From contig OZ244999.1 in NCBI GenBank assembly GCA_965223265.1, forward strand, positions 320,001 through 384,000: DNA of 64,000 nucleotides, given 5' to 3'. The notes beneath the pieces were generated by a model. The model saw only the letters and a list, made by a program, of their open reading frames with translations, was not told the DNA's origin and ran no database searches. The position numbers and the translations under genes are program-made. This document shows positions 7,002 through 24,622 of the stretch, one piece after another. This DNA is from Planctomycetota bacterium. Its GTDB lineage: Bacteria; Planctomycetota; UBA8108; SXIK01. Every line of letters begins with the position of its first letter. The stretch's first letter is position 1.

Positions 7002-7894
7002 CTCCTCACATAGTGACGCCGAAGCCGAGACTGGGAGGAACTCGTTGTTCGTCGTCTTGAAAACGGCGATGCAGATGGCATCGGAGGAGGTGGGGGTGCG
7101 GGCGGGTTTTCCACTGTGACATGGATTGTCCCAATACTGACATCCACCGACTCAGGTGCACTAGCAGCCGCCACACTCCGCGCCTCAGGTTGGGCGGTCC
7201 CTGGCGGAGGGGCTCCTTCTGCGAGTCTATGGAGTGTGGGGATTTCTTGATTCGATTCGTATGGTTTTTGCCGGTCTGAACTGCTTGCGCCATGCGGTGG
7301 TCCCGAGCCACTCTCGTTATTAGGTGGTGAAGTCAGCCAGTCGCGCACGTTGGTCAGGATCGCCGTGACTCTCTCTCCATGATGTCCAGCACGCTCTGTG
7401 GGTGATCGTCGGTGGGCGTGTGGTTCTCTTTTCACAGACCGACCTTCTTCCTTCGGCTTTGGGATGTCGCGAGAGACGTCCGGTGCATCTAACGGAACCA
7501 AGGAATGCGTCGGGAAAGTGCGAGGGGGAATCGGCTCGTCAGGCGGCTCCGCGTGAGGTGCGCCAGCAGTCTGTCTGACGCGTCCGCCGCTGACGTGCGC
7601 TTCGTCGTCGCCGGGCTCGATCTTACTGCTGGCAAATTCCGCGCTGCTCGCGACGACTTCTTGCGGTGGAACAGCTCGCTCATTCGCCACGGAAGATTGG
7701 AGCGGTACGGTGCCCTGAGGGGACGCTTCCTGGGTTTGGTGGTCAAGTTCAGTCGTCTGCGATGCGGTCGAAGGCAAGACCGGCTGCTCCCCAAACACCG
7801 ACTCCGAGCTCTCGAACGAAGGCGCCGTGGAGACGTCGTTCGTCATCCGACTGGACGGTTCGAGCGACTGTAAGATTCTGTCAAAGTACTTCAT
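6995..7894 (-). CDS. Low-complexity Pro/Ser-rich eCIS-associated hypothetical protein
   Basis: ATG 7894 overlaps the upstream stop (ATGA); C-terminal V.VSIGTI.V.V followed by a Pro-rich tail. Confidence 0.65.
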   Translation of the reverse strand: MKYFDRILQSLEPSSRMTNDVSTAPSFESSESVFGEQPVLPSTASQTTELDHQTQEASPQGTVPLQSSVANERAVPPQEVVASSAEFASSKIEPGDDEAHVSGGRVRQTAGAPHAEPPDEPIPPRTFPTHSLVPLDAPDVSRDIPKPKEEGRSVKREPHAHRRSPTERAGHHGERVTAILTNVRDWLTSPPNNESGSGPPHGASSSDRQKPYESNQEIPTLHRLAEGAPPPGTAQPEARSVAAASAPESVDVSIGTIHVTVENPPAPPPPPMPSASPFSRRRTTSSSQSRLRRHYVRRW

Positions 7895-8718
7895 GGAGTC
7901 GTCGTCGCCGAGACGAGCGCGAGATAAGCGCTCCGGCGCCAAACTGGCAGTTGCATGATGTCTCGTTCCGGCCAGTGATAGGATGCTGCCAGGCGATGGA
8001 CATCCTCGATCACGGTGCGCTGGCGGCGATGAAACGCAGAGAGAATCAGTTCTTCCAAGTCGACCGGGAACTTCGCTTCTTGCCTACAGTCCGGGCATGA
8101 GACGCGTAGGTCGAAATTGACGAGAGGATCTGCTTGAGCGAGAGATTCTTCGATGAGTGCCAGTCGCTTCGTGGTCAGTCTTCGCACGCCTTCAGCCTCT
8201 AACAGTAGATCGCTGACTATGCGCTTGGCGCTAGGTGCCAGGCCGCGACGTTTTTGCTCCGTCCAATCGCGCTGGTCTGCTCCTGTCGGTACCCGTAGTT
8301 GCGCGGACGCGCGTGGAAAGTTGACGCGAACGGATTCTGGTGTCGCTCGGTCACTATGCGATTCAACGACGTGATGGAGAGACAGTTCACACTCCAGGTC
8401 TGCGTTGCATCCATTCACTCGGCACCGAAGTCGCAAGAGCGGAAGCGTTAACTCATCCACGAGCGCAATGCGCAGAAGGCATCCCAGGCGGGTGCCTAGC
8501 GTGAGATTCCAGAGGAATTCCGGATTCACTTTCGCTGCCGGATTGCAGGCACACGCTTCGAGGATGGCCTGTACAACTCGGCAACGATGCGTTGAAGAGA
8601 AATCGAGATCCAAATAGCTCTTTGTTGCCTCGAGTCCCGAGAGTCTTAACCCCTTCGCGCAGAAGCGTTCGGAGAGTGTGTCAGGAATTGGCGGGAACGG
8701 GATGTGATTCGTCAACAT
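7891..8718 (-). CDS. Baseplate hub / tail-assembly protein (T4 gp26-like, Cys-motif type)
   Basis: LTLG.R...LL, C...GC, LR.PTGAD, L..ADPL......CPDC, DVH.LA..YHW.E.DI..LP.WRR..YL; follows the tube gene. Confidence 0.8.
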   Translation of the reverse strand: MLTNHIPFPPIPDTLSERFCAKGLRLSGLEATKSYLDLDFSSTHRCRVVQAILEACACNPAAKVNPEFLWNLTLGTRLGCLLRIALVDELTLPLLRLRCRVNGCNADLECELSLHHVVESHSDRATPESVRVNFPRASAQLRVPTGADQRDWTEQKRRGLAPSAKRIVSDLLLEAEGVRRLTTKRLALIEESLAQADPLVNFDLRVSCPDCRQEAKFPVDLEELILSAFHRRQRTVIEDVHRLAASYHWPERDIMQLPVWRRSAYLALVSATTTP

Positions 8719-8747
8719 GAAACGCGCCCCAAACGATAGCTCATGTG

Positions 8748-9269
8748 TTAGCTCGAGGGAGGAACTGCGGCCTTCTCATCTGGTTCTGTCGTCTGAGGGT
8801 CACGTTCCCACCCTTCGAGCTCGAGCTTCAGCGACTCGATCGCTACGGCATTGGCGTTTGCGTCAAGTTCCGGCATCGCGGTGTATTCGCTGACCCAGCA
8901 ACCGTGCAAAAAGAACCGCAGGGCTACCTGCCCGCGCTCATTCATCACCTCCAGCGATAGCTCTCGCTTGTAGTTCACGAGATCCATCGACGGATCACCA
9001 GCGAAGGAATGAACCGAACTCGCCCATTGCTCAAACTCCGGATCGTGTGTTCTGCCACGCTCGAGAGTGATTCCGTCGTAGGACGTGCGACCAGGAGATT
9101 TGTGGTCGTAGCTGTTCTCCCCGCCGGAGCGATGTGACACGACCTCGGTGGTTCGTTTCAGTGTGCTCACTTTGCTGACCCCTAGGACTGTGCGTCCATC
9201 CGCGACTTTCAATCGAAACTTGAAGTTCTTGTAAGGGTCGTAGCGATGCGCGTTCGCAGTGAATTCCAT
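8748..9269 (-). CDS. Tail tube protein (T4 gp19-like, Afp1/5)
   Basis: RYDPYKNFKFR, VSKVS.LKRTTEVV.HR.GG, KSPGRT.Y..ITLERG.THD.EFE.WA, LDANANAVAIE...LE.EGWERD. Confidence 0.97.
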   Translation of the reverse strand: MEFTANAHRYDPYKNFKFRLKVADGRTVLGVSKVSTLKRTTEVVSHRSGGENSYDHKSPGRTSYDGITLERGRTHDPEFEQWASSVHSFAGDPSMDLVNYKRELSLEVMNERGQVALRFFLHGCWVSEYTAMPELDANANAVAIESLKLELEGWERDPQTTEPDEKAAVPPSS

Positions 9270-9284
9270 CGCAGCACTTCTCCT

Positions 9285-11297
9285 TTAGTCGACGTCCGGG
9301 ATCTGCTGAATCTTGATGACGACGAACTCCGCAGGCTTCAGCGGAGCAAAGCCGACTTCGATATTGACGATGCCGAGATTCCTGTCGATGGCTGTCGTTG
9401 TTGTGCCGTCACACTTCACAAAAAATGCAGTGTTGGGGCTGTCACCCTGGAAGGCTCCTTGCCTAAACAAGTTCATCATGAAGGCACCGACGTTCTGCCG
9501 AATTTGCGCCCAGAGAGGCTCGTCATTGGGTTCAAAGACGACCCACTTAGTGCCGCGGAACAGGCTCTCTTCGATCATGAGTGCCAGCCTTCGAATGGGG
9601 ATGTACTTCCACTCTGAAGCTAGTTCATCGGCTCCCAACAGTGTTCGCGCGCCCCATACCACTCTGCCGAAGATTGGAAAGTCGCGAAGGCAGTTGACCC
9701 CTAGAGGGTTGAGCGTACCGTTCTGAGCGTCAGTCAACTGGGCATCGAGTCCGACAGGAGAGAGACCACGCACGCCGGCCTCGATTCCTGCCGGAGCTTT
9801 CCACACCCCTCGTGTGCTGTCTGTGCGCGCGAAGACGCCAGCGACAGTGCCACTGGCACCCACGGAGCGTGCCCGATACTCGTCGAGCGGATCGGGAATC
9901 GATGGGCGTGGAAAAAAGATTGCTGTGTTGCGGTGACGAAAGTCGGAGTGGTCGTCAATCCAGGCCTCCATTTCCTCGACCGTGTTGACGGCCTGAGGAA
10001 TATCGAGGATGTAGAACGATCGACGCTCCTGACAAAACGCCGTGGCTGCTGCGACGACCGCTCGTACCTCTGGGTCAGAGAGATGAGGAACCGCAGCGCG
10101 CGGAATGCAGAGAATATTGAAAAGATCGACATCTGCTAGGCGATGAATTCCCGTCTTCAGGTCGGGGTCGCCGTTGAGCTCTGTCGCGGTTGGGTCGACT
10201 CCGTCCCCACCCGCGAAGTCCGCTTGCCCGACCTGCGCGGCTGCCGAACTCGCGGCTCCTAGGGAATACTCTTGCACGTTCGCGAATTCTCCTCCCCCGG
10301 TCAGGCCGAGAGAGGCCACCACAGATCCTCCGTCTTCTGAAAACGTGATGATCTCGCTTGGCACGAAGCTCCGGGATCTCCGTCCAGTTGTGACTCGTAG
10401 GCGACTACCTACAAGCTCGACGGTCGCACCTGCGAAAGAGGCGTGCGTGGGATCGGTTCCGCTCGCCGGCCGTGATTCTCGGATGGCTTTGGAGAATGCC
10501 TGACGAACTTCTTGCAGGGAACTGGACGTCGTCAAATCGCTGCCGAACGTTCCTCGATGCTGCGGCGGGGGTTCGTCGGGTCCGGTGACGTCGATCAGGA
10601 AGGTTTGACCGTTGAGTGTCGACGGGTCCGCGAGGTTGGTTGAATCGACGACGGCATCTCCTAAAGTTCCTACGACTGCTGGCAGATCAGCTGCAGAGAT
10701 CGATGTCGAGGGCGTCGCATCATGGGCAACTCGGATCAGTCGAGACTCGTCATTGATGACGGTGGGAAAGTACCGCGCGCTGTCCGGCGCCACCGAAAGG
10801 TTGAGAAAAGGGCCTTCCGCGTCAATCACAGCTCCGCTGCCGTCGTATCGCACCACCGTCAAGCCGAAACTGGGCGTACCATCCTGATCTTGTCCGTGCC
10901 GAACGGTCACCCGGAGGCGATTTCCCCAGCCGCCTTCATTTGCGGCTCTCACGGTCATGATTTGGGTTCCGGCAGTGTTCTGAAGGCCGACGCGGGCTGC
11001 ACGAAAGCGCTCGTTGGGATCGGTAGCTGCGGCGTTGTCGCGCCCGACGCGAACCACCCAGGCTTCCGTTCCACCATTGAGGAAAAACTGAGCGATTCCA
11101 TAACTCGCCGGACTCGATTGATCGAGGCCGCCGAAGATTCGGTTGAAGTCGCCCATTCCCTGCACTCGAGCAGCGGTGTCGGTTGGTCCTTCGCGAAAGC
11201 GGTCGACGAATGCGGCGATCGACGTCGCCACTGCCGTGATCGGACGAACCCCGCTCGGCACTTCTTGGACATAGACGCCCGGATAAGAGACCCGCAT
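9285..11297 (-). CDS. Contractile tail sheath protein (Afp2/3/4-like)
   Basis: SYPGVYVQEVPSGVRPI, ARTD..RGVWKAPAG, LNP.GVNCLR, WGARTL, WKYIP.RR, GFAPLKPAEFV; GGAGG RBS upstream. Confidence 0.97.
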   Translation of the reverse strand: MRVSYPGVYVQEVPSGVRPITAVATSIAAFVDRFREGPTDTAARVQGMGDFNRIFGGLDQSSPASYGIAQFFLNGGTEAWVVRVGRDNAAATDPNERFRAARVGLQNTAGTQIMTVRAANEGGWGNRLRVTVRHGQDQDGTPSFGLTVVRYDGSGAVIDAEGPFLNLSVAPDSARYFPTVINDESRLIRVAHDATPSTSISAADLPAVVGTLGDAVVDSTNLADPSTLNGQTFLIDVTGPDEPPPQHRGTFGSDLTTSSSLQEVRQAFSKAIRESRPASGTDPTHASFAGATVELVGSRLRVTTGRRSRSFVPSEIITFSEDGGSVVASLGLTGGGEFANVQEYSLGAASSAAAQVGQADFAGGDGVDPTATELNGDPDLKTGIHRLADVDLFNILCIPRAAVPHLSDPEVRAVVAAATAFCQERRSFYILDIPQAVNTVEEMEAWIDDHSDFRHRNTAIFFPRPSIPDPLDEYRARSVGASGTVAGVFARTDSTRGVWKAPAGIEAGVRGLSPVGLDAQLTDAQNGTLNPLGVNCLRDFPIFGRVVWGARTLLGADELASEWKYIPIRRLALMIEESLFRGTKWVVFEPNDEPLWAQIRQNVGAFMMNLFRQGAFQGDSPNTAFFVKCDGTTTTAIDRNLGIVNIEVGFAPLKPAEFVVIKIQQIPDVD

Positions 11298-11810
11298 GGT
11301 CTACCTCCGTGGATGCGAATGTTGCTCCGCGACGAGTGACAAACTCTCGTCGAATGACCGCCGGCGTGAACGGATTCTGAAGGCCCCTTCACCCCGGCGC
11401 CGAATCCGTGAACTCAGAAAGGGAGCGCCGAAATCCGCTTCGACTTGTCAGCATTTGGTCACGCGGCGAGACCACCGATGACGCTGACTGATCAGCCAAA
11501 CGGTGCCATGGAAAGTCGAGAGAGATTGCGGCTTTATGTCCTCGAGGTATCGGATAGCGCCGTCTCGCACAAGTCATCGTTTCGATGTACTCACATCGAT
11601 GTACTTAGAAGCGATGACGAACAGGAGCTTGATGACAAGGTAAACGACGCGCCTCGTGCAGTCGCGATCGAGTGAGAATCTTGACGGCGTGAAGACTTTT
11701 TCTACATCGCAGTATTTTGTCCTATCATGAGGCTGTGGAGGTTTTCGTCGAACTGGAGGCGTACGATGCATAATGAGCAAGGACGTGCCCCGGTGTTTTC
11801 ATGTCGCTCG

Positions 11811-12833
11811 ATGACTCGATCCTTAGCTACCAGTTTTGGCGCCATCGTTTTGCTTGCGTCCGGTTGTGTGAGTTCTCCTCCTGTTGTGGACGCAACGCGA
11901 GTTTTCCATCGAGCCTTGGCTTTGCGGTGGGCCCCGATTCACTATCAGGACGTGGAGGAGAGCGGGGCCGATGGTTTGCGGGGCAGAGCAGATCTCCTGA
12001 CTGCTGTTGATTTCGATGGCGACTGGGACACCCAAAACAACTGGGAGAACCTTGAAGATCCCTCGAACAGAGTCATCGGGACTTGCTACTATTCGGTGGT
12101 CACCGCTTGCTCGCACTGGTTCGTTCTCTACGCGTTTTACCATCCGCGTGACTGGGAACAGGCGTCGATCGACACTCGTCACGAGATGCATGAAAACGAC
12201 ATGGAAGGCATCTTGTTGGCGATTCGTAGGCCACTCGAGCCAGGCGACGATGCGAAGTTCGGTACGCTCGAAGCGATGATCACGGTCTATCGCGACGATT
12301 TTTTTGCTTACGTCCCCTCTGGGAGTCCGTTCGAGGACGCAGATCGCATCGACGGTGAGATCGGATTCGAGTCGCTGCGCGGAGAGATGCATCCGGTGAC
12401 GGCTCAGGAGGCTCAAGGGCACGGAGTGAAGGCGAGACCGAAAGTCGACGTCTATGGTCGAGATTGGGTGAGATACCGCCCGACTGGCGGACGCGCCACA
12501 GAGACAGTTTCCACGCGTGAGGGAAGCGCAGACTACGAGCTTGTCGACATCTTTGAGTCCGGTGGACTGTGGGCCCATCGGGACGATACGCAGACGTTCG
12601 AGGCTTTTGGGGTTTTTCGCAGTAACAACGGTGGCGAGAGGCGGGCATTCGCGCCCTGGCGATGGCGTGGTCTCTGCTGCGGAGGCCAATCTCCGGGAGG
12701 TGAGATTGCTGTCGATCCGGTGCGACTTCTGAAGGATCAGTTTCGCACCGACGCATTCACCTCGCGATACGAGGAGAATCCCTACTTGGATGCGCCGCAA
12801 TCGACAGATTCTCGAGCGTCGCGAGACCGTTGA
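11811..12833 (+). CDS. Predicted lipoprotein with YHPRDW/HENDMEG motifs (possibly NPP1/Vps62-like fold)
   Basis: Lipobox LLASG-C after ATG 11811; WAPIHYQD, DFDGDW..NNWEN, YAFYHPRDW, HENDMEG; fold assignment tentative. Confidence 0.6.
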   Translation: MTRSLATSFGAIVLLASGCVSSPPVVDATRVFHRALALRWAPIHYQDVEESGADGLRGRADLLTAVDFDGDWDTQNNWENLEDPSNRVIGTCYYSVVTACSHWFVLYAFYHPRDWEQASIDTRHEMHENDMEGILLAIRRPLEPGDDAKFGTLEAMITVYRDDFFAYVPSGSPFEDADRIDGEIGFESLRGEMHPVTAQEAQGHGVKARPKVDVYGRDWVRYRPTGGRATETVSTREGSADYELVDIFESGGLWAHRDDTQTFEAFGVFRSNNGGERRAFAPWRWRGLCCGGQSPGGEIAVDPVRLLKDQFRTDAFTSRYEENPYLDAPQSTDSRASRDR

Positions 12834-13324: not shown

Positions 13325-14146
13325 ATGGGAATCGCAGTGAAAGACGAGAGTCGCCGATGGCCAGGTGGGCGAGTTACGTTCAAAAAGGGCTCACCGCCAC
13401 CGACTCTGTGGACAAAGTTCACATCCGCCATTCGCATCATTCATGACTTAACACCGATTCGCATTAGGGTCGCAGACGAGCCTGACGCAGTGTCGGTGAT
13501 TCGTTCAAACGGGGCCCAGTCGTCGCACGTGGGCCGGGCTCCCGATCCGTCGACCCAGTGGCTGACTTACAGCGACAATGCGGCAGTCGGAACCGTACTC
13601 CACGAGATCATGCATGTTCTTGGAGTTGTCCATGAGCACCAGCGACCGGATCGCGACAATTTCGTCACCATCCATTTCGACCGTCTCATGGACAACAAGG
13701 CGCAGTTCTTTAACAAATCAAGTGGTGTCAACACCGTCACCATCGGGCCGTACGACTACGACAGCGTCATGCACCCAAAGGCTGTTTTCTACAGTAGGGA
13801 CGGACGCGTGACGATCGAAGCGCCGCAGCCGATCGGTCAACGCACAACGCTGAGTGCGGGCGACATTCAGGCGCTGAAGGAGATCTACCCGGATGCCGGC
13901 ACTTGGACGCTCCCCAATCCGGATGATGGTGTCGACACAGTGGAGACCATAGAGCAGCCAACTGCAGAGACGACGACCGCGCCCACCTCAATTGCCCTTG
14001 ATCCAGACGGCGTTCTTGAGGTCGGTGGCTGGACGAAAGCGAGCCAGAGGGTGGTGACGCTGAGCTCGTCGTTCTTTGTGGAGGTGACGAATCTGAAGCC
14101 GGATCCGATCGAGGTGGCGGTGCGTGACGTTTCGGCGGATCCGTGA
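13325..14146 (+). CDS. Astacin-family (M12A) zinc metallopeptidase
   Basis: HEIMHVLGVVHEHQRPDRD zinc motif, YDYDSVMH Met-turn, IGQR..LSAGDI; AGGAGG RBS upstream. Confidence 0.92.
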   Translation: MGIAVKDESRRWPGGRVTFKKGSPPPTLWTKFTSAIRIIHDLTPIRIRVADEPDAVSVIRSNGAQSSHVGRAPDPSTQWLTYSDNAAVGTVLHEIMHVLGVVHEHQRPDRDNFVTIHFDRLMDNKAQFFNKSSGVNTVTIGPYDYDSVMHPKAVFYSRDGRVTIEAPQPIGQRTTLSAGDIQALKEIYPDAGTWTLPNPDDGVDTVETIEQPTAETTTAPTSIALDPDGVLEVGGWTKASQRVVTLSSSFFVEVTNLKPDPIEVAVRDVSADP

Positions 14147-14448
14147 GCTTCGCGGACGGATCCGAGCAGCCTCGAAGAGCAGCGCCGCCCCCGTTCCCTG
14201 ACACGACGGCCCGCATGGTTCGATCGGTCTCGTCAGGCGACGAAAGTGAGCAACGCGGAGGAATTCTGTTCGCGATTTGTCCGATATCTTTACGAATCTG
14301 TTGAGCCATCAATAACATTCATACGGGCGGCGTGAGAATCAGCTCCTGGCTAACCAGAGCATGCCAGTCGACGCCCGACGTTTGGCACGCGGCTGGCCGC
14401 CCGTGGACACTTCCTCTCGAAGGTTCTCTAAGGTTGGAGAGTCCTACC

Positions 14449-15993
14449 GTGACCGCGCACACGAAGGTGTTTCTCTCATACAGTAGCGCAGATGCAGAGC
14501 TCGCCCAGCGACTAGCCAAGGACTTGAAGTCCGCCGCCATCGACGTCTGGATTGATCAATGGGAGCTCGAGGTTGGCGAGAAATTTGCCCATAGAATCGA
14601 GAGCGGCGTAGATGCAGCTAGTTTCGTGATCGTCCTACTGACGAAAGCGAGCGTAACTTCCGAGTGGGTCGCCCGCGAGTGGCGCCGCAAGGCTGACGGC
14701 GAGGCTGGCACCAAGAGAGTTCAGGTCGTCCCGGTGCGTGGCGAGGAGTGCGAGATTCCCGATTTTCTGGCTCAGCGCAGCTATGTGAACCTAGCCGGCG
14801 GAAGTTACCCTCTGGGATTCCGGCAGTTGCTGGAGATCCTGCGTCACCATGCAGAAAGCGACGCCATCGAGGTGCCCCGAAACACGATCTTGAAGCAGGA
14901 AGAGTACGCTGGTCAGTGGCTTCCTGTCGTGACCCCGATCACGTTGGAGGTGAGCAGCGACCTGATCCCGCTCTTCGATCAGGATCGCCGCTTTGTGGAC
15001 GAGCTGGCACCGAGAATGCGAGATGCTTTGCGAGCCGAGCTCGGCTTTCCGCTCCCCGGCATCCGCGTGCGAGGCAACGAGACCGACATGCCACCCAGCC
15101 ATGCGCTGCTCATGATTGAAGAAATACCTGAGATCATGTTCCAGGTGGGCCGGGACGAGATGTCGGTCGATGGGTCGGTTGAGAGCCTCGCGGAGCTCGG
15201 AATTACGGCGGAGCCGCGCCTGATAGCTGAGTTGGGCATCCAAGCGAGCATTGCTCCGGTCGACCGCGTTCGAGCCGAGTCGGCGGGCATGGCCACGTGG
15301 GATGCTGCCGAGTACCTATGCCGTGCGTTACAGTTCGAGCTCCGGCGCTGGGCTAGCCTGTTCCTCGACGTGGACGTCACGCGAAAGCTGGTGGACGTGG
15401 TCGCGCGCTCGGCTCCCGAGCTGGTCGCCGAAGCTATTCCGAAGGCGGTGTCCTGGTTCGAGCTCACAGAAGTTCTGATTCTCCTCGTAGAAGAAGACGT
15501 CTACATCAGAGACATGGCTTCGATCCTCGAGGCGCTCTCGCACTGGGACTCTGACCTGCGCGATCCCGTCCTGATGGCGGAGAGGGCGAGGCAAGCGTTG
15601 AGCGCGCAAATCACCGCTCGGCTCCTCCAAGGTCGAGAGTCATTGCCAGTCCTTTTAGTCGATCGCGAGATCGAAGGACTCATGTGCAGTGCAATCCAAC
15701 CGACTCCCGTAGGGTCGTACCTTTCACTCGAGCCGCAGCTCTTAAACGACATCACGGCTGCTGTGCGTAGGGAAGTGAACTCGCTTGGAGCTGAAGCGGC
15801 CGAGGTGACGATCCTGACGTCGGCCTGCGAGATCAGGCGGCATCTCCGAAAGTGCGTGGAGCTTGAGTTCCCTTCACTCCAGGTGGTGTCGCGTCAGGAT
15901 CTCGAGCCCGAAGCACCGATCAAGCCGATCGCTCAGATCAGCCTGAACGTCGCGCGCACTCGCGTCGAAAACGGTGGAGGAACATCGACATGA
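14449..15993 (+). CDS. TIR domain fused to the SctV/FlhA (FHIPEP) cytoplasmic domain, copy 1
   Basis: KVFLSYS...VWIDQWEL.VG...SEWVAREW (TIR), then VVTPITLEV...MRDAL..ELG.PLPGIRVRG...LVEE.V.IRD...GSYLSLEP...EIRRHLRK.VE.EFP; no TM segment; GTG 14449 start inferred (ORF open from 14332). Confidence 0.9.
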   Translation: MTAHTKVFLSYSSADAELAQRLAKDLKSAAIDVWIDQWELEVGEKFAHRIESGVDAASFVIVLLTKASVTSEWVAREWRRKADGEAGTKRVQVVPVRGEECEIPDFLAQRSYVNLAGGSYPLGFRQLLEILRHHAESDAIEVPRNTILKQEEYAGQWLPVVTPITLEVSSDLIPLFDQDRRFVDELAPRMRDALRAELGFPLPGIRVRGNETDMPPSHALLMIEEIPEIMFQVGRDEMSVDGSVESLAELGITAEPRLIAELGIQASIAPVDRVRAESAGMATWDAAEYLCRALQFELRRWASLFLDVDVTRKLVDVVARSAPELVAEAIPKAVSWFELTEVLILLVEEDVYIRDMASILEALSHWDSDLRDPVLMAERARQALSAQITARLLQGRESLPVLLVDREIEGLMCSAIQPTPVGSYLSLEPQLLNDITAAVRREVNSLGAEAAEVTILTSACEIRRHLRKCVELEFPSLQVVSRQDLEPEAPIKPIAQISLNVARTRVENGGGTST

Positions 15994-17585
15994 CTTCGAA
16001 AGTTTCCACAGACGCGGTCTGTTTGTTGATGTCCTTCAGTAGTGAGTACGTCGACCTCGCCCGGCGGCTCAAGGGTGATCTGAGCACGGCAAACCTCCGC
16101 GTGCAGCTCAACCAGTGGGACGGTGGAGGTCGTATGCCCGCCGTTCAGTCTGGTGAACATTGTGTCGACGACGTGAATTTCGTACTGCCCCTGCTGACGC
16201 CTGCGCCGCTCGTCGTGCCTTCTGAGGAGGCCGTAAGCTGGGTCGGTGACGAGTGGAGGCGAGCGATCTACGATCACGCTGACGCTCGAAGCATCCCAAT
16301 ACTCGCTGTCCGGGGGGAGCGCTGCGCTGTTCCCGACTTCCTGAAAAACCGAAGCTTCGCCGATCTCTGCAGGCGCGGCTACACCCTCGAGCTTCGGCGG
16401 TTGGTCGAGACGATTCGCAATCGATCTCAAGACACGAGAATCGTGCTGCCGGACCGTGAGCCGGAGGTCGACGACTCCCGATCAACGGTGGCATCGACGA
16501 CTCCGATCGTACTCGAGTTGAGCGACGAGCTCATGCCGCTCTTCGCAGGTACCAACGGGAAGAGCCGTTTTGTCGAGGAGACTGTTCCTTGCATGCGCGA
16601 CGGGCTGTTCTACGAGCTTGGAGTTCTGTTCCCAGGGGTGCACCTGCGGGTCGCACCAGACTTGTCCGGCTCGTCCTCACGAATCGTGATCAACGACGTT
16701 TCCGAAAAAAGGCTGGAGCTTCGGCTCGAAGATGTGATGGTCAACGACAACGTCGAAGCATTGGCGAAGCGGGGGTTCGTCGCCGAGCCAGCTGTGAACC
16801 CAGCCAACGGACTTTCGTGCGGCTGGATCTCGACTCGCCACGCTGCAGCGGCTGAAGAATGTGGCCTGGCGACATGGGACGTCCATGCGTACGTGATTCT
16901 TGAGCTAACCGCGGTCCTTCGGCGCATCGCAGCGGACTTCGTCGATGCCGACGTGACGCAGGTTTTGTTGGATAGACTCAAGCTCGCCTTTCCGCTGCTC
17001 GTTGAAGAGACCGTTCCAAAGACTGTCTCTCTCTTCATCCTCACCGACGTTCTCAGGAGATTGGTTGCCGAGCGCCTCCCGATTCGCGATTTGCGCCGAA
17101 TCCTGATGGTCGTCGCAAAATGGGGACGCTGCGAAGAGGATCCACTCATGTTGACCGAGTACGTGCGCAGCGGTCTCAAGCGTCAGATCACCCATCGCGT
17201 GAGCCGTGGACAGAACAACCTCACCGTGTTCCTCCTCGATCCCGAGATGGAGACCGCGATCCAGAACGCGACGCGGCAGGCAGCAACTGGCGACTATGTC
17301 GAGCTCGAACCGGACAGTCTCAGACAGATCGTGGCTGCCATCGAGAAGCCCCTGAGTGCCCTCGCTGACGGAAGCTTTCAGCTCCCGTCAATCCTTACCA
17401 CCGCGGAGGTTCGCCCGATTGTACGCCGACTCGTCGCTCCCTGGATGCCGGCGATTGACGTTATCTCGTATCAAGAGATCAGCCAGACTCGCCAAATCGG
17501 AATTCAACCAGTTGGCCGAATTTCTCTCGATGGCTTCGAGCCGCGGCAGGGAATCTGGCCGTATCCAACGCCGTCTCATCAATGA
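15990..17585 (+). CDS. Divergent TIR domain fused to the SctV/FlhA (FHIPEP) cytoplasmic domain, copy 2
   Basis: LLMSFS...SWVGDEWRR...RGERCAVPDFL, then MRDGLFYELGV.FPG, NPANG..CGWI, LRRLVAE..PIRDLR, LTEYVR..LKR.I, LLDPE.E, SYQEI, IQPVGRISL; ATGA overlap with copy 1. Confidence 0.9.
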   Translation: MTSKVSTDAVCLLMSFSSEYVDLARRLKGDLSTANLRVQLNQWDGGGRMPAVQSGEHCVDDVNFVLPLLTPAPLVVPSEEAVSWVGDEWRRAIYDHADARSIPILAVRGERCAVPDFLKNRSFADLCRRGYTLELRRLVETIRNRSQDTRIVLPDREPEVDDSRSTVASTTPIVLELSDELMPLFAGTNGKSRFVEETVPCMRDGLFYELGVLFPGVHLRVAPDLSGSSSRIVINDVSEKRLELRLEDVMVNDNVEALAKRGFVAEPAVNPANGLSCGWISTRHAAAAEECGLATWDVHAYVILELTAVLRRIAADFVDADVTQVLLDRLKLAFPLLVEETVPKTVSLFILTDVLRRLVAERLPIRDLRRILMVVAKWGRCEEDPLMLTEYVRSGLKRQITHRVSRGQNNLTVFLLDPEMETAIQNATRQAATGDYVELEPDSLRQIVAAIEKPLSALADGSFQLPSILTTAEVRPIVRRLVAPWMPAIDVISYQEISQTRQIGIQPVGRISLDGFEPRQGIWPYPTPSHQ

Positions 17586-17934
17586 TGATGAAGGCTCTGT
17601 GAGGCGTTGAGTTCGATTTTGACCTCCGTCGGCAATTAAGCGGGGATGCCCTGGAGCGAACCCAACGATCATTTTCTGGCAAGATCCAAATCTTCGCGTG
17701 CCCGAAAGATGTTCGTCGTCGGAAGGCTTTTTGATTACAGCGAGCTTCGATAACCCATCGTGCCGCGCTTCCACACGTCTTCGCTGCGCGCAGATTGGTC
17801 GCACTTCTCGCTTGAGCACTTTAAGACGGTTCGGTTATTCTAGCTGATACTTCGCCGGATGCGCAGGTTCACCGCGACGCCGTTGGTCCCAACGGAACGG
17901 CGCTGGACCCGCGGGCTTGTGGATCGAGGCAGTC

Positions 17935-19686
17935 ATGAGCGAGCGACCTCTCCTCCGCGTTTTCGTCTCCTCAACCGCCGAGGATTTGAAGGATCACCGT
18001 GCCAGGGTTTTTGAGGCGCTGCTCTTGTTGGGGGATCTACCAGTCGCCATGGAGGCGTTCGGCGCCGACCCGGGTGATCCCGTCGAGGTGTGCCGCGAGC
18101 GCGTGCGGGAGTGTGACATCCTCATCGTCCTGGTCGGCCGTCGCTACGGATGGGTTCCACGTGCGGATGAAGGCGGCGACGACCGGCGAAGCATCACGTG
18201 GATTGAAGTCGACACCGCGCTGGAAGCCGGGAAGCCCGTGTTCGCCTTTCTCGAAGTCGCGGATCCTTCAGCGGCGGAACCTGCAGAAGACGGCCCCGCG
18301 ATCGGGCGACTGCGGGAATTCCGGGAATTTCTAGAGCGGGACGCTCGCCTGACCCGCGACGTGTTCACGACTCCGGACAATCTCGGCATGAAGGTAGCCA
18401 CGAGCGTTTCCGGAGCGATCCGACCGTCGCGTGGCCGCCTTCGTGTGTGGATCGCCGCGACGGTTGTCTTGCTTGTTGGCCTCGTTTGCGAGTGGCTGCA
18501 GGTCTTCAGCGGCTCGATCGACCCTGCAACGGACGATTTGGTCATGGGCTACGCGGAACGACTCGATCCGACTTCAGTCGACGATCGCATCGCGATCGCA
18601 ATGATTGATCAGCACACCATTGATGCATTCGGCGTCGAGTTCGGACCGAGCTGGCGCGCCTTCCATGCAGAGTTCGTTTCTCGACTCTCACGTGCGAGGG
18701 CACACGTCATCGCCTTTGATATCTTCTTTCCTTCGCCGACGGAACATGACCTCTCGTTCCGCGACGCGATCAAGTCGGCTCGGAGTATAGGTTGCCGCGT
18801 GGTCGTCGGCGTTGCTGAGTGGGGCGAGCAGCAACCGCAACTCTCCGAGATTCTCCGCAGCGAAGTGAGTGGATTCGGATCGCTCTGCACGACGGAGAGG
18901 AAAGGGGCGGAGAGGTTCGTGTCCGGAGCTCTCGAATCCCGCGGTCGATCGATCGTTCCAGCCTTTGCTGTCAGCGTGTTTGCCGCGGCAGGCGAGTACG
19001 ACGACTTCGCTATTATGGAGATCGGTGACCGCCCACCGAGGATGAAGGTCTCTCTCGGCGGAGAGGAGCTTTGGTGGCGTGTTTTCGAGACGATCGAAGT
19101 CACAGAGCGAGATAAGGAATCGCCTACGCGTGGAGGGGTCGAAGCCATTGGCTGCCCGCTCGAGTCGGTTGGCGACAAAGTCGCGCTCCTCGCATTCGAG
19201 CCGACCGCTCGGGAGGCGATCGGCTCACGAATCTTAAAGTACGAGGATCTCATTTCGGCGTCGGAGTCTGATCTCGCCCGCATGATCAGTGGCAAGATTG
19301 TCTTCGTCGGCGTCGACTCCGCTGTGGAGGAAAGGCGCGTTACCTATGCTCTTTCGAAAGAGTCTCGTCTGGGGGTAAGGATTCATGCTGATGCGTTGAA
19401 TACGCTTCTAGCGAAACGCCTCCTCCACCCGGCTGGGCACGATGTGCAGATCGTCCTCCTAGTTGTGAATAGTTTCATCGGCGCGTGGCTCGTCAAGGTG
19501 CGCCTTGCATGGCTGAGGCTGCTTGGGATCTTGGGTATGACCGGTGGCGTCGTCGCCGTCGCGCTCTTTCTTCATGTCGGCTATGCAATCGTGCTTCGAC
19601 CTGTGTATCCGCTCTTTGCCCTTTACGCGGCGGCCACTGCCACTTGGTTTTCCCGGCCGCGCTGGAGGGGCATTGGAAACCGGTAG
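17935..19686 (+). CDS. DUF4062 (TIR/DRHyd-like) - TM - CHASE2 - 3TM membrane receptor
   Basis: RVFVSST..DL...R, MEAFGA, DI.I.LVG.RYG, SIT.IE...A...GKP; one TM; IAIAMIDQ.TI, VIAFDIFF, GKIVFVG, GV.IHA.ALNTLL (CHASE2); three C-terminal TMs. Confidence 0.88.
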   Translation: MSERPLLRVFVSSTAEDLKDHRARVFEALLLLGDLPVAMEAFGADPGDPVEVCRERVRECDILIVLVGRRYGWVPRADEGGDDRRSITWIEVDTALEAGKPVFAFLEVADPSAAEPAEDGPAIGRLREFREFLERDARLTRDVFTTPDNLGMKVATSVSGAIRPSRGRLRVWIAATVVLLVGLVCEWLQVFSGSIDPATDDLVMGYAERLDPTSVDDRIAIAMIDQHTIDAFGVEFGPSWRAFHAEFVSRLSRARAHVIAFDIFFPSPTEHDLSFRDAIKSARSIGCRVVVGVAEWGEQQPQLSEILRSEVSGFGSLCTTERKGAERFVSGALESRGRSIVPAFAVSVFAAAGEYDDFAIMEIGDRPPRMKVSLGGEELWWRVFETIEVTERDKESPTRGGVEAIGCPLESVGDKVALLAFEPTAREAIGSRILKYEDLISASESDLARMISGKIVFVGVDSAVEERRVTYALSKESRLGVRIHADALNTLLAKRLLHPAGHDVQIVLLVVNSFIGAWLVKVRLAWLRLLGILGMTGGVVAVALFLHVGYAIVLRPVYPLFALYAAATATWFSRPRWRGIGNR

Positions 19687-19696
19687 AGGAAACTCC

Positions 19697-21346
19697 ATGC
19701 AATTCGCACGGCAAGCCATCTTTGGACTCCTGTTGTTCACGGGCGCATGCGCCCCGAGAGTCGACTCGATTGTGGTCCGCGGTAAGCTGGCCGAGGCAGG
19801 TGAGTCAGTGGATGTCCAAGTCGTTCGCGACAAGGAGCTTGTCGACGTAGAGCCCGGGATGAAGCTCAAAGAGGCCGATGTGCTGACAACAGGCTCTGAC
19901 CACACGGTGAAAGTCACAACGCGGGAAGCGGATTTTACTGTGTACCCGAGATCTACCATGACGCTCGGCGACAAGGAGGTGATCACTGACATCGCCACGA
20001 TTGCGATCAGTGCTCGCAAGGCGGTACGCGCACGGAGCTCGTCCACGGTATCTGGGACTCGCGGCACCGAATATTTTTTCGAGGAACTCGTGCTCGGCGA
20101 TCAGAGAACGGTCAAGGTCACCGTCATTTCCGGCGTTGTCTCCGTCAGCTCTCCGACGAACGCCTTTTCGGAGTTGACGCTGAGGCCTCGCGAGCAGGTC
20201 GTCGTCGCCGCGAAGCCGGAGCCAGTGCGGACGCTCGGCGCGAAAGAGTTCAATGACTACGTCAACAAGCAAAATGATGTTCAAAGGGTGATCGGGAAAG
20301 GCGCGAAGTTTCTCATGCCCGGCGTGGTTGGTCAGCCCGAGCCCGACGCGAACGGCCTTCTCTCTCAATGGGGGTTCGCAATCAATCGTGTCCCGACGAT
20401 CGAGGGTAATGAGGATCAGATGGGGAAGGTTGTTCGTCAGGACCCCGACGCTGGCACGAGGGTCAACCCAACCGGCGTCACCGTTCGGTTGCACGTCCGT
20501 GTGCGTGCTGTTGACGTGCCGAGCGTAATCGGGCTGAGCTTGTCCGAGGCTCGTAGAGTACTGCACGAGGCCGAACTGGTAGGCGAGCGCGCCGGGGAGT
20601 CGATCTCTGGCCAGTTCGCGGCGGGTGAGGTAAATAGCCAAGAGCCATCCGCATCGGCTCAGGTCCCCGAAAGTACCACCGTGCGGTTGATCGTTGAAGC
20701 CGAGTCAGTCGTCGTGCCTGATGTTCGCGGCATCGATCTCGACAGTGCCAGGCGAACGGTAGCTGAAGCAAGGCTCGAATTGAACGTCGGCGGGGAGAGC
20801 TTCCGCGCGGGCATCGAGCGTCCCGAGGTCGAGCGTCAGAAGCCAGCCGCCGGAGCGCGTGTGAGTCCTGGCACCGTGGTGTCTGTCGACGTCCTCAACC
20901 CCGGGTTCGCCGTTCCTCGACTGATCGATCTGAGCCGCCAAGCCGCCGAGCGTGCCTTAGCGGAAAACGGACTCCGGCTGGGACGTGTCACTGAAGAGCA
21001 CAGCACGCGTTACAAGGCGGGACGTGTCCTACACCAGGCGTACGGCGCGGATACTCTCTTGGGAAGCGGCGCGTCCGTCGACATCGTCGTCTCGAAGGGA
21101 CCGGAGCAGTGCAGCGTGCCTCAGCTCGCCCCATATCGGCGCAGCGATGGCCGCTGGCAGTATACCTACCTCCCTGAAGCTCGACAGAAGCTCGCTAGTG
21201 CCGGACTGCAGCTTGTGATTCGTGGTTCGGCTCCCCCTCGCGACAGAGAGGGCAAGTATTACGTCCAGGAGCAGGACATATCGCCGAATAGTCGAGTCGA
21301 CTGCGGCAGTCCTGTTGGTGTGCGCCTTCTGAGAGTCGTGGAGTGA
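19697..21346 (+). CDS. Lipoprotein with FecR domain and five PASTA repeats
   Basis: Lipobox LLFTGA-C; GM.L...D.L.TG, GTRGTEY, V.VISG.VSV (FecR); five VP.V.G.....A...L...GL...Q.P..G..V repeats; GAGG RBS. Confidence 0.88.
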   Translation: MQFARQAIFGLLLFTGACAPRVDSIVVRGKLAEAGESVDVQVVRDKELVDVEPGMKLKEADVLTTGSDHTVKVTTREADFTVYPRSTMTLGDKEVITDIATIAISARKAVRARSSSTVSGTRGTEYFFEELVLGDQRTVKVTVISGVVSVSSPTNAFSELTLRPREQVVVAAKPEPVRTLGAKEFNDYVNKQNDVQRVIGKGAKFLMPGVVGQPEPDANGLLSQWGFAINRVPTIEGNEDQMGKVVRQDPDAGTRVNPTGVTVRLHVRVRAVDVPSVIGLSLSEARRVLHEAELVGERAGESISGQFAAGEVNSQEPSASAQVPESTTVRLIVEAESVVVPDVRGIDLDSARRTVAEARLELNVGGESFRAGIERPEVERQKPAAGARVSPGTVVSVDVLNPGFAVPRLIDLSRQAAERALAENGLRLGRVTEEHSTRYKAGRVLHQAYGADTLLGSGASVDIVVSKGPEQCSVPQLAPYRRSDGRWQYTYLPEARQKLASAGLQLVIRGSAPPRDREGKYYVQEQDISPNSRVDCGSPVGVRLLRVVE

Positions 21347-21945
21347 ATTTCTGCGGCGGTCACGACCGTCGCTCCGCGGTACACTCGCGCGGCACTTGGT
21401 CGGCACACTGGTCTGGGGCCGCGAGCCGGCAGTGAATCTACGTACGTTGATCTCTGCCACGTCGCCTTCGGGAGCCACGAAGGCGCGCCCCTCAATCGAT
21501 GTCGGCTTCCGGCGTGGTCTCGTCTTAGCCGGCGATCGTCTATCTTGACGACGAACAAGAGCAGAAATAGCCAAACTAGACGATAGGCTAGACCTCAATC
21601 TACGAACTCTTTTTGATGACACGCCGCTGTTTTTTTTTCGATTCCGAGGGTCATTCGCGCTGTCTCCTGTCAGTCTGACCGTATTTCCTGGCCTGTTGGG
21701 AAAAGACTTGCGCCGAGCGCGCCTCTTCGCGACACTGCGAACGTGGACTACGGTCCATCGGCACGAGTGTTGGGGCGCGATCAGGAGGTTGTTGCAGGAC
21801 GCGGGCTCTTGGGATTTGGCGCAGTCATGGTGTCGTCTCGACCATCGGGCAGCCGATCGCCTTGTTCCTTCGCCTCGACGACCGTCTCAGTGTGGTCCGG
21901 CTAGTCGATGGCCGAGCATAACGAGAGTCTAGGGGAGGTGAACCA

Positions 21946-23076
21946 ATGAGTTGGATCGAATCGCTCGAACCAAACGCTCAGCAGCAGCGAAAGTTGCTTG
22001 CACTCGACGGCGGAGGCATCCGAGGAATCATGACGATCGAGATCCTTGCTGGACTCGAGCGCATGCTGCGCGACGAAACCGGCGGTGGAGAGGACTTTGT
22101 CCTCGCCGATTACTTCGACGCCATCGCCGGCACCAGCACAGGCGCGATCATCGCTGCATGTTTATCGCGTGGTATGTCAGTTGAGAGCGTGCGCCGCTTC
22201 TATATCGATAGCGGGCCTGACATGTTTCAAAAGGCCAATCTTTTTCGGCGTTTCCGTTACAAATACGAGGACGACAAGCTTGCCGCGAAGATACGAGACG
22301 TTGTCGGTGCCGACGCGACGCTCGGAGACCCGTCGCTGCGCACCATCCTCATGATGGTCCTGCGGAACGCCACGACGGATTCACCGTGGCCGTTGTCGAA
22401 CAATCCCAAGGCGAAATACAACGACCCTGGTCGCGGCGACTGCAACTTGCAGCTTCCACTTTGGCAGTTGATTCGCGCCAGTACCGCGGCGCCGACGTAT
22501 TTCCCACCTGAAGTGATCGAATTCGACAACGGAAGATATGAGTTCGTCTTCGTCGATGGCGGAATTACACCCTACAACAATCCCGCCTTTCAGCTCTTCC
22601 TCATGTGCACCATTCAGCCGTACCGGCTTCAGTGGCCGACCGGAGAAGACAAAATGCTTTTGGTCTCCGTCGGTACCGGGACGAATCCAGAGGCGAACGC
22701 TGACTTGGCGCCCGGCGATATGAATTTGTTCTACAACGCCGGTTCGATTCCCTCGGCTCTCATGTTCGCAGCGCTCAACGAGCAGGATCTGCTCTGCCGG
22801 GTCTTCGGCAACTGTCTTTCCGGCGAGTCCATCGATCGTGAGGTGGGCGACTTGAGAAATATTCCAGCGCTGGGCGATGAAAAGCTGTTCACCTACATGC
22901 GTTACAACGCGGAGTTGTCTGAGGACGGACTGAAGCGCCTGGATTTGCCCGACGTCAAACCGGACGACGTCGCAAAACTCGATTCCATTCGGCATATCGA
23001 GGACTTGCAGCGGATCGGTACGCGCGTCGCCGAACGCGATCTCGACAAAGCGCACTACGCCGCATTCTTGAGTTGA
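21946..23076 (+). CDS. Patatin-like phospholipase
   Basis: LALDGGGIRG, GTSTG nucleophile elbow, RASTAAPTYFPP, FVDGG; GGAGG RBS. Confidence 0.95.
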   Translation: MSWIESLEPNAQQQRKLLALDGGGIRGIMTIEILAGLERMLRDETGGGEDFVLADYFDAIAGTSTGAIIAACLSRGMSVESVRRFYIDSGPDMFQKANLFRRFRYKYEDDKLAAKIRDVVGADATLGDPSLRTILMMVLRNATTDSPWPLSNNPKAKYNDPGRGDCNLQLPLWQLIRASTAAPTYFPPEVIEFDNGRYEFVFVDGGITPYNNPAFQLFLMCTIQPYRLQWPTGEDKMLLVSVGTGTNPEANADLAPGDMNLFYNAGSIPSALMFAALNEQDLLCRVFGNCLSGESIDREVGDLRNIPALGDEKLFTYMRYNAELSEDGLKRLDLPDVKPDDVAKLDSIRHIEDLQRIGTRVAERDLDKAHYAAFLS

Positions 23077-23157
23077 CGCTGCTTTGTCTCTAAACGGGGC
23101 GTGCAACGAGCTCGTGGGAAACCGCCCCGCTCTCTTACTGATCGAAACGGAGGCGTG

Positions 23158-24468
23158 ATGAACGAACAGGTCAGAGCGATACGCGATCAGCAGCAAGTAG
23201 AGCTTCAGCAGCGCTGGCTCAAGTTTGCCCCGGTGCCGCCGGAGCGTGGAACGAACTCTTATGACGTCTTCATCAGCTACCGGTCTTCGGATCGCGAATG
23301 GGCCATGGCGCTTTACGACGCACTCGAGATGGCGGGCTGGAAGGCGTTTCTGGATCAGTACGAGCTCGTTCCCGGGAGCGACCTGGAAACAGCGCTCACG
23401 GAAGCGCTCGAAGCGAGCTCGTCCGGCGTGATCCTCTGGTCGAGTCGGACGGAGGACTCGGAGTGGTGCAAGCGCGAGCGCAGGGCCATGCGATCGCTGA
23501 AGGACCAGTCGGCGTCGTTTCACTACCTTTTTGCAAAACTCGACACTAAGCCGCTGCCGCGGTTTGCTCAAGCCGATCTCTACACCGACTTCGAGGATAG
23601 CCCGGAGGGACCGCGTGGCGTTCACCTGCTGCAGCTCATGTGTGGGATGCGTGGCGTCAAATTGGCGCCAGAAGCGGTGGCGATGGCGCAGCAGGTCGAT
23701 CAGAACGCAAAGGAGATGTTGGTGGCCATACGAGGTGCGTTCCAAGGGGACAATGCGGACCGCCTCCTTGAGCTCGGCACGTCGGGAGAACCTGGCGTGC
23801 TCGCGTCACCGACACCCATGCTGGAGGCGGCCCAGGGCTTGATCAGCATGGGACGAGTTGATGCCGCACTCGAGGTGCTACAGCACGCGCACGCGTACTT
23901 TCCCAAGTCGATTCGGGTGCGGCAGCTCGAGGGGCTCGCGCTGCGCCGAGCGGAGAAGTATCAGGAAGCCATCGATGTCCTCTCCGAGCTGAAAGCCGCG
24001 GGGCACCAGGATCCTGAGACCATGGGGATCCTGGCGGCGGCTTGGGATGGCCGCTACCGCGAGTCCGGCAAGTTGCTACACCTCCGCAAGTCGCGCGAGC
24101 TGTACCGTACGGCCTTTCAGGCCGACCCGACGGACTATTACACAGGGATCAACGCCGCGTCGAAGTCGCTCTTTCTCAGCGAGGCGGACGAAGCGTCGCG
24201 GCTCGCCGCCGAGGTTCTTCCTTTGGTCGAAACGGCCGTCGACGGCGAAGATTTTTACGCCGGCTGCACGTTGGGTGAGGTCCACCTCTTGCAGAAGAAT
24301 GTGGGATCTGCGGCGGCGCTGTATCAGAAGGTCGTCGACAAGCACTTCGAGCGAGCTGGCGACCTTCGCGGAACGCGACAACAGGCAGCAAGAATCTGCG
24401 CAGCGCACGAGCTAAGTGTGGAGGAGACTGAGAAGGTGTTGACGCCGTTCGCGTTGATCGAAGAGTGA
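23158..24468 (+). CDS. TIR domain + TPR (MAP3K TRAFs-binding / TPR-S-like) protein
   Basis: YDVFISYR...FLDQ.EL.PG...SEWCKRE; C-terminal QL.GLAL.R, DPET.GIL, Y..AF..DP.DYYTGINAA, TLGE..LL. Confidence 0.88.
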   Translation: MNEQVRAIRDQQQVELQQRWLKFAPVPPERGTNSYDVFISYRSSDREWAMALYDALEMAGWKAFLDQYELVPGSDLETALTEALEASSSGVILWSSRTEDSEWCKRERRAMRSLKDQSASFHYLFAKLDTKPLPRFAQADLYTDFEDSPEGPRGVHLLQLMCGMRGVKLAPEAVAMAQQVDQNAKEMLVAIRGAFQGDNADRLLELGTSGEPGVLASPTPMLEAAQGLISMGRVDAALEVLQHAHAYFPKSIRVRQLEGLALRRAEKYQEAIDVLSELKAAGHQDPETMGILAAAWDGRYRESGKLLHLRKSRELYRTAFQADPTDYYTGINAASKSLFLSEADEASRLAAEVLPLVETAVDGEDFYAGCTLGEVHLLQKNVGSAAALYQKVVDKHFERAGDLRGTRQQAARICAAHELSVEETEKVLTPFALIEE

Positions 24469-24622
24469 CGTATGTCGTCGAGCTGTGAGATGGCCAACTC
24501 GTTTGATCCGTCTGTTGTGAGAGAGTCTGCGGCCGAAGTTTCGTGTCGGCGGACGACGACCACCATGCTTCAATCGCTTCAGCCGTGCTTTCAGTGTGCT
24601 GGGTGTCTTCGCGAGTCGTGAT

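Follow-up and report, generated by a model that had tools for sequence, protein, structure and literature searches.

Two adjacent genes, here called A and B, lie in a 64,000-nucleotide stretch of a Planctomycetota genome (the window; positions 320,001 to 384,000 of contig OZ244999.1, assembly GCA_965223265.1) and encode paralogous proteins in which an N-terminal TIR domain is joined to the complete cytoplasmic domain of SctV/FlhA, the export gate of type III secretion and flagellar systems (this domain, the SctV-C part, is called FC below). The TIR-FC pair is real, conserved and, in the literature searched, undescribed, and it recurs in many environmental bacteria. With moderate confidence, we read it as a self-contained, soluble, heteromeric TIR effector of the conflict or immunity type, in which the SctV ring domain would act as scaffold or sensor. 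The features on which this reading is built are the following.

14449..15993, plus strand: gene A, TIR-FC subunit with a canonical TIR and a diverged SctV-C, 514 amino acids (open reading frame, Pfam, orthologues, AlphaFold2 model)
15990..17585, plus strand: gene B, TIR-FC subunit with a divergent TIR and a near-canonical SctV-C, 531 amino acids (open reading frame, Pfam, AlphaFold2 model)
15976..15993, plus strand: ribosome-binding site GGAGGA inside the end of gene A, with the ATGA stop/start overlap (sequence)
14467..14832, plus strand: TIR domain of A (residues 7-128), with Glu E77 at 14677-14679 (Pfam; alignment to AbTIR, 8g83)
16029..16403, plus strand: TIR domain of B (residues 14-138), with Glu E88 at 16251-16253 and a Gly-rich BB-loop region (Pfam)
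14896..15912, plus strand: SctV/FlhA cytoplasmic domain of A (residues 150-488; subdomains SD1-SD4) (FHIPEP, hrcV, Foldseek)
16470..17489, plus strand: SctV/FlhA cytoplasmic domain of B (residues 161-500; SD1-SD4) (FHIPEP, hrcV, phmmer, Foldseek)
14914..14931, plus strand: linker segment of A (residues 156-161, LPVVTP), predicted to dock on SD1/SD3 of B (complex model)

The original prediction, made from the letters of this DNA, had described two translationally coupled genes, each with an N-terminal TIR domain, a complete SctV/FlhA cytoplasmic domain and no membrane domain. The gene layout bears this out: two open reading frames overlap in the ATGA at 15990-15993, and GGAGGA (15976-15981) lies 9-14 bases upstream of it. 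The frame of gene A is open from 14332, and GTG 14449 is the likelier start, with GGAG 9 nt upstream and a resulting N-terminus that fits those of the orthologues. A scan of 13900-18100 yielded one promoter-like and two terminator-like sites, no more than shuffled sequence would be expected to give. Between A and B, sequence identity is 37% over the TIR and 35% over the FC domain.

Domain searches and structural comparison agree on the architecture of both proteins. A match of the C-terminal halves to Pfam FHIPEP, a check set beforehand, was obtained at 177 bits for A (profile positions 320-655 of 657) and 213.9 bits for B (321-655). Among the NCBIfam models, hrcV (TIGR01399) scored above FlhA (TIGR01398) on both A (177.8 vs. 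134.6 bits) and B (216.6 vs. 174.3 bits); all of these scores are below the equivalog cut-offs, and far below the 692 bits set for hrcV, because the membrane half is missing. Indeed, FHIPEP profile positions 1-320, which represent the polytopic membrane domain, are unmatched in both proteins, and the highest 19-residue hydropathy means are 1.49 and 1.44, vs. 3.34 in the host's own FlhA. AlphaFold2 models of B (pLDDT 88.6, pTM 0.81) and A (pLDDT 77.9) superpose on Chlamydia CdsV-C, Yersinia YscV-C, InvA-C and FlhA-C with TM-scores of 0.85-0.91 over about 350 columns, and therefore SD1-SD4 and the preceding linker are all present in A and B. For CdsV-C itself (6wa6), the target-normalised Foldseek TM-scores were 0.90 (B) and 0.85-0.89 (A), again over about 350 columns; sequence identity is 34% for B and 29% for A, and phmmer aligned B residues 158-513 to residues 34-386 of the 6wa6 chain (4.2e-60).

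Pfam TIR_2 (PF13676) matched A at 102.5 bits and B at 31.5 bits, both above the curated cut-off of 28 bits. Each TIR had been said to keep a catalytic-position Glu, and alignment agrees: E77 of A (WVAREW) falls on the Glu of WTNYE in the solved AbTIR NAD+-cleaving enzyme (NADase; 8g83), and E88 of B (WVGDEW) occupies the same column of the family alignment. Both thus carry the Glu of the W-x3-E motif of TIR NADases, which we take to be the catalytic residue of AbTIR and SARM1, and in the B clade W84 is nearly invariant and W89 invariant. Judged by these residues, the A/B TIR domains would be NADases. A private motif, RGE.C..PDFL..RS, had also been proposed to unite the two TIRs, and this stood in part: across 89 fusions P115 is invariant and L118 nearly so, but RGE.C, found in the A clade and in the window's B copy, is missing from the B-clade consensus.

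Recurrence and origin of the pair

Homologues of both proteins were readily found. A word-indexed protein search with B matched 117 proteins, and both Pfam domains were present in 67 90% clusters besides the window's own, whose members are about 525 amino acids long and 43-59% identical to the query; one B-type protein in the cluster look-up is named Candidatus Accumulibacter. An exhaustive profile-free search with A returned A-type orthologues up to 57% identical. By domain mapping, 107 of the 262 proteins that the searches with A and B retrieved (the window's two included) have a TIR followed by an FC domain without the membrane part. A decayed remnant is ruled out, because the frames are intact and the proteins are conserved, at 44-59% identity, across many clusters. 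A contig scan of genomes with one protein gave a single FC-only locus (L004, 26% identity).

The pairing of the two genes was followed in metagenomes, using a 54-sequence B-clade alignment as the query and keeping the best 80 of 376 confirmed stretches. Among these best 80, a full-length B-type gene occurs in 12 loci (L019-L030), every time immediately preceded, in the same orientation, by an A-type gene or, at a contig edge, by the C-terminal end of one; because L029 and L030 hardly differ, the independent loci number at most 11. Seven of the junctions are ATGA, three GTGA and one TAATG, and the last is a 9-base gap, i.e., 10 of 12 are four-base xTGA overlaps. From this pairing and these junction types it follows that A-then-B is a conserved, translationally coupled unit. 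The original prediction would have fallen had the fusion been a one-off or a misassembly; the same two-gene architecture on 12 metagenome contigs rules out both. No open reading frame of at least 40 amino acids within 3 kb is common to the loci, except one shared by the close relatives L028 and L029, and the window's neighbouring genes do not recur at the other loci save for generic TIR-to-TIR similarity. The A/B pair is therefore self-contained; this, and the varying company of conflict genes around it, go beyond the original prediction.

Closer to the host, the fusion is absent. None of 40 relatives carries it (37 have FC-only matches, in frames of at least 584 amino acids), nor does any genome in a further sample of 400 from this phylum; five of the 400 have FC-only matches in frames of 698-833 amino acids. 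On these counts the distribution of the pair is patchy, as expected of horizontally moving accessory genes. Among sequencing runs, the stretch itself occurs in four from one study, possibly of the source sample, and no RNA run containing it is listed.

To place the FC domains, we built a FastTree phylogeny of 198 sequences and a quick IQ-TREE phylogeny (LG+C20) of 63. FlhA sequences, the host's own included, split from all others with 100* support, and on the SctV side the IQ-TREE phylogeny recovers A (11 rows) as one monophyletic group at 96* and B (17 rows) as another at 99*. The nearest membrane-bound relatives are SctV proteins named Myxococcota, Polyangiales or Deltaproteobacteria, from metagenome-assembled genomes, in line with the non-flagellar, myxobacterial-like SctV that had been expected. 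While the free tree leaves the sisterhood of A and B unsettled, a joint A+B clade is not rejected (p-AU 0.846), and holding A and B together gave a tree 26 log-likelihood units better than that of the free search. Because the joint clade is not rejected and the A-then-B pairing is conserved (12 of 12 loci), the data fit one fusion followed by an old duplication, the order of events proposed originally.

The trees also contain other FC-bearing proteins. P0144 and P0146 also have the TIR-FC architecture, with TIRs that resemble neither those of A and B nor one another, and their FC domains nest with that of the membrane-bound SctV P0153 at 100*; the TIR-FC combination therefore arose more than once. 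In P0152, P0162, P0172 and about 20 others, a long array of TPRs leads into two SctV-C matches, one full and the other split; these TPR-FC-FC proteins, of about 1400-2100 amino acids, form a starred clade of their own on the SctV side of the tree. In P0192 (1297 amino acids) an FC domain precedes a winged helix and a ClpB-like AAA+ domain, P0222 combines FC with CarboxypepD_reg, and P0209 is a HEAT-repeat protein with FlhA-clade FHIPEP matches.

The host genome was searched for type III secretion genes through four families. The window comes from a 9.18-Mb single-contig genome that is 91.65% complete by markers (C1:320001-384000), in which the only full-length FHIPEP gene sits at 6.58 Mb in a flagellar cluster with FlhB, FliP, FliO, FliI, FliH, FliG, FlhF, a MinD/FlhG-like ATPase and a sigma factor. 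YscJ_FliF, T3SS_ATPase_C and Bac_export_2 have one match each, all in the same 6.58-6.59 Mb cluster. By these four families (FHIPEP included) the host has no injectisome, and the window holds no type III secretion or flagellar gene besides the two FC domains, as had been claimed; nor does such a gene stand beside the A/B pair in any locus examined. The flagellar cluster gives some footing to the idea that A/B regulates flagellar or type III export in the host, with a soluble gate titrating chaperone-substrate complexes, the stalk or the ATPase complex, as does the fact that SctV-C and FlhA-C domains have been solved with chaperone-substrate pairs and with a stalk protein (6ch2, 6ch3, 7qij and 6wa9 in the Foldseek listings). 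We consider this very unlikely: the FC domains of A and B are on the injectisome side of the split from FlhA in a host that shows no injectisome by the four families, neither the relatives nor the phylum sample carry the fusion though the relatives have FlhA, no export gene accompanies the pair, and a fused TIR has no place in such a role.

Apparent division of labour and predicted assembly

Conservation differs between the two subunits in a reciprocal manner. All 23 A-clade sequences have the Glu of W-x3-E-W, as against 47 of the 54 in the B clade, where seven have lost it, and at three loci (L027, L029 and L030) B has T or A at this position while the partner A still has Glu. At six loci compared for both subunits, the TIR and FC domain of A average 64% and 48% pairwise identity, and those of B 49% and 51%, respectively. 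The most conserved part of A is the TIR (mean top-residue frequency 0.72) and that of B is SD3 (0.84), the subdomain borders being approximated from the models. SctV hallmark motifs are lost in A (MAERAR, SRQDL) and kept in B (LTEYVR, SYQEI), which, with the Pfam scores, upholds the reciprocal divergence noted originally. Based on these asymmetries in Glu, identity, SD3 and motifs, A looks like a catalytic specialist and B like a scaffold or docking specialist. The asymmetry between the two TIRs goes beyond the original prediction and is functional-looking.

The loss of the Glu in seven of 54 B TIRs also lends itself to another explanation, in which A/B is a non-enzymatic adaptor whose TIRs recruit other TIR proteins of the surrounding gene island (TIR-STAND, TIR-TPR-S), the SctV-C ring being the hub. 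The window does have five TIR genes within 17 kb, and eight of the 10 TIR_2 matches of the genome lie within 58 kb (C1:290092-348496). However, the Glu and the W-x3-E-W motif of A are kept in all 23 sequences, as an active site would show, and the island's other TIR genes are not conserved with the pair at other loci, so that we hold the adaptor to be improbable.

The original inference of an A-B heteromer gains support from the conserved coupling of translation and from a two-chain model that combined A residues 6-500 with B residues 12-514, each with its own alignment. In three runs the model reached an ipSAE of 0.70, vs. 0.15 for the best of three controls, a pass that may stem from the solved SctV-C rings; the mark applied is one reached by 58 of 80 solved complexes and two of 110 mismatched pairs. 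The runs have at least 82% of contacts in common, with partner pLDDT of at least 75, and all confident contacts are FC-FC. On the A side the predicted contacts involve the linker (156-161) and residues 223-228, 307-312 and 335-341, and on the B side residues 204-211, 326-345, 365-381 and 398-407. The lowest-error contacts involve A residue 159, and in the A clade P159 and V161 are nearly invariant and P163 invariant. The model thus supports A-B binding through FC-FC contacts.

Taken together, these features suggest how the proposed effector might work. The FC halves, which are complete SctV-C copies minus the membrane domain, would hold the subunits by neighbour contacts as in SctV rings; in the geometry predicted by the model, the linker of A would lie on SD1/SD3 of B, and the TIR domains of neighbours would come to stand side by side on one face. 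Because each TIR is immediately N-terminal to the linker that docks on the adjacent subunit, assembly would bring neighbouring TIRs together. A would supply the catalytic TIR and B the conserved scaffold or ligand-binding SctV-C, the TIR of B, which can dispense with the Glu, serving as the inactive half of a TIR pair. In TIR NADases, active sites arise only through ordered packing of TIR against TIR, and the SAM ring of SARM1 and the ligand-induced filaments of TIR-SAVED and TIR-STING are cases of scaffold-controlled packing; a scaffold that governed how the TIRs pack would likewise gate their activity. A trigger, most likely a protein bound by the SctV-C part or a shift between its open and closed states, would order the TIRs into active assemblies that cleave NAD+. 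The presumed outcome is growth arrest or death via NAD+ depletion or, less likely, a nucleotide signal.

A more specific version of the trigger, which we regard as possible but doubtful, makes A/B a sensor-executor immune couple with an integrated decoy, by analogy with plant paired TIR-NLRs. The near-native docking domain of B would then be bait for invader proteins that target or use type III or flagellar gates, e.g., phage or competitor factors resembling chaperone-substrate complexes or stalk-like coiled coils. Their binding would alter the open/closed state of a mixed SctV-C assembly and release or align the invariably intact TIRs of A, and NAD+ would be destroyed.

Genomic setting and alternative roles

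The pair stands between a contractile-injection-system-like cluster and a TIR-rich island.

17917-31385: TIR-rich conflict island, downstream genes (Pfam)
23101-24468: TIR-TPR-S protein
24596-26164: 522-amino-acid protein with a C-terminal TIR
28080-31385: TIR-nSTAND1-FGE-sulfatase
434-11297, minus strand: contractile-injection-system-like cluster (Pfam)
9285-11297, minus strand: tail sheath
8748-9269, minus strand: T4 gp19-like tube
5778-7001, minus strand: Pvc16_N protein with a TIG domain
3607-5781, minus strand: AAA ATPase
13325-14146: astacin (M12A) metalloprotease, between the injection-system cluster and the A/B pair

Downstream of the pair follow, in order, a DUF4062-CHASE2 protein, a five-PASTA protein, a patatin-like lipase, TIR-TPR-S, the 522-amino-acid protein and TIR-nSTAND1-FGE-sulfatase. 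At other loci, Pfam annotation of 10 open reading frames in five loci gave conflict-type neighbours as well: TIR-SLOG, a nucleoside 2-deoxyribosyltransferase-like protein, a ThsB-like TIR, a patatin-like protein and IS605 OrfB, and a 1391-amino-acid WD40 protein with an N-terminal TIR match. The neighbourhood is thus typical of conflict or defence islands and varies by locus. In L021, TIR-SLOG (LD_cluster2) and the nucleoside 2-deoxyribosyltransferase-like gene are in tandem at 6852-10246 (minus strand), and IS605 OrfB is at the contig start. Farther along the window, a 1817-amino-acid protein (36186-41639, minus strand) has the unusual combination of FG-GAP repeats and PPDK_N, the pyruvate phosphate dikinase ATP-binding domain. 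Several open reading frames inside the injection-system cluster, and a 368-amino-acid one at 11727-12833, have no Pfam match.

Such neighbours could be partners of the pair. If A/B were a Thoeris-like signal generator, its TIR would make a nucleotide signal (a cADPR isomer or similar) for a separate effector in the island, for instance a patatin or SLOG protein. The TIR of A has weak ThsB-type and Thoeris-III ThcB4 matches, a patatin gene lies 4.4 kb downstream in the window and one is also found in L024, and L021 has the TIR-SLOG gene. However, across 11 loci and the window the 3-kb flanks of the pair hold no conserved effector gene, and the SLOG and patatin neighbours vary by locus and are often on the opposite strand, which makes this reading unlikely in our view. 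On the other side, the pair could be cargo or an accessory of the adjoining contractile injection system (about 3607-11297, minus strand), being 3.2 kb from the sheath gene and divergent from it, with the astacin protease between. Payloads of such systems usually sit after the ATPase gene, whereas A/B is found on the upstream side of the sheath gene, encoded by the opposite strand, and BLAST with the window's copies found no sheath or tube genes at the other loci; we rejected this explanation as hardly credible.

Several points weigh against the immune-effector reading that we prefer. In PADLOC-DB v2.0, no model matches B and only the TIR portions of 21 models match A, so that the defence label is drawn from neighbourhood and analogy. 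The neighbours include ordinary genes too (an amidohydrolase, a CoA-transferase and a PEP-CTERM protein), among 10 open reading frames in only five loci. Full-length copies, i.e., matches covering at least 80% of the query, were found in none of 460 matching plasmid records and none of three phage records, which gave only FC-level matches to ordinary SctV genes; mobility is accordingly deduced from the patchy distribution only. Nor did the four families reveal, in the host, an injectisome whose substrates an SctV-type domain could recognise. As for the complex, nonameric SctV-C rings have been solved, and the A-B model may therefore have passed through the model's memory of them. It covers one A-to-B interface of the two that a mixed ring needs, and a strictly alternating A-B ring cannot be a canonical 9-mer; the actual assembly might be a heterodimer, a stack of rings or a single ring with an even number of subunits.

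Relation to known systems

The original prediction knew of no described system with this architecture, and we found none in the literature searched: full-text searches, whose hits were judged by title and abstract, returned no description of a TIR-SctV-C fusion, and PADLOC has no model for it beyond generic TIR. Likewise, the main texts of two eLife surveys of conflict systems (PMC8195603 and PMC7159879) contain neither FlhA, FHIPEP, T3SS nor 'type III secretion', although their supplementary domain tables could list the fusion. The architecture is visible in databases, as JGI records carry the automatic annotation 'FHIPEP family/TIR domain', and is undiscussed as far as searched.

Compared with the SctV/FlhA gate (CdsV, YscV, InvA, MxiA, EscV, SsaV and FlhA-C), A and B have the complete SD1-SD4 and the preceding linker, the SD3 motifs are conserved in B, and the predicted A-B interface uses the linker and SD1/SD3. 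Unlike the gate, they have a TIR in place of the membrane domain, form a heterotypic pair and lack type III secretion neighbours (SctU/FlhB, SctRST, SctN and SctJ), in a host without an injectisome. Since both the membrane domain and the gene context are absent, A/B is not an SctV or FlhA export gate, and the cytoplasmic fold alone is held in common. The scaffold looks borrowed from the injectisome export gate, and the pair is obligate-looking and heterotypic. Work on the gate's cytoplasmic ring has been confined to its part in secretion machines; here it is free-standing, conserved, diversifying and fused to TIR, always as a heterotypic pair. For the type III secretion field, this would show which SctV-C surfaces are kept without secretion, namely SD3 and the linker contact, with LTEYVR-type motifs in one subunit only. 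Should the decoy explanation be true, soluble FC modules, whether TIR-fused or linked to TPR or AAA+ domains, would be a new and widespread class of immune sensors derived from a secretion machine.

With TIR NADases (AbTIR, TcpB/BtpA and PdTIR) and defence TIRs (ThsB, TIR-SAVED, TIR-STING and TIR-NLR), A/B shares a TIR_2 domain with W-x3-E, fusion of the TIR to an oligomerising or sensing domain, and location in islands of conflict genes. It differs from them in a partner domain that we did not find reported with TIR in the searched papers, in comprising two paralogous subunits with the Glu obligatory in one, and in having no nucleotide sensor or NTPase. Thoeris pairs ThsB with ThsA, and A/B is not Thoeris because the genes within 3 kb include no conserved ThsA-type effector (SIR2/SLOG or Macro); the PADLOC ThsB matches are weak for A (E 7e-10 at best) and absent for B. 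If the proposed role is correct, A/B would define a new class of scaffold or sensor for TIR-based immunity, and a tractable two-gene system in which to see how ordered TIR assembly switches on.

Two eukaryotic systems offer parallels in design. In SARM1 (ARM-SAM-TIR), a constitutive ring scaffold holds many TIRs that are active when packed, as the putative A/B ring might, but its SAM octamer is unrelated to SctV-C, the protein is a homo-oligomer, and its sensor is a metabolite-binding ARM domain. The plant paired TIR-NLRs RPS4/RRS1 are likewise adjacent paralogous TIR proteins, an executor with an intact TIR and a sensor with the better-preserved target-like domain; A/B differs in lacking NB-ARC and LRR domains and in having the target-like domain in both subunits, where it would also provide assembly. 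The A/B pair, if it works as proposed, would be a bacterial parallel to both ring-scaffolded SARM1 and the paired TIR receptors of plants.

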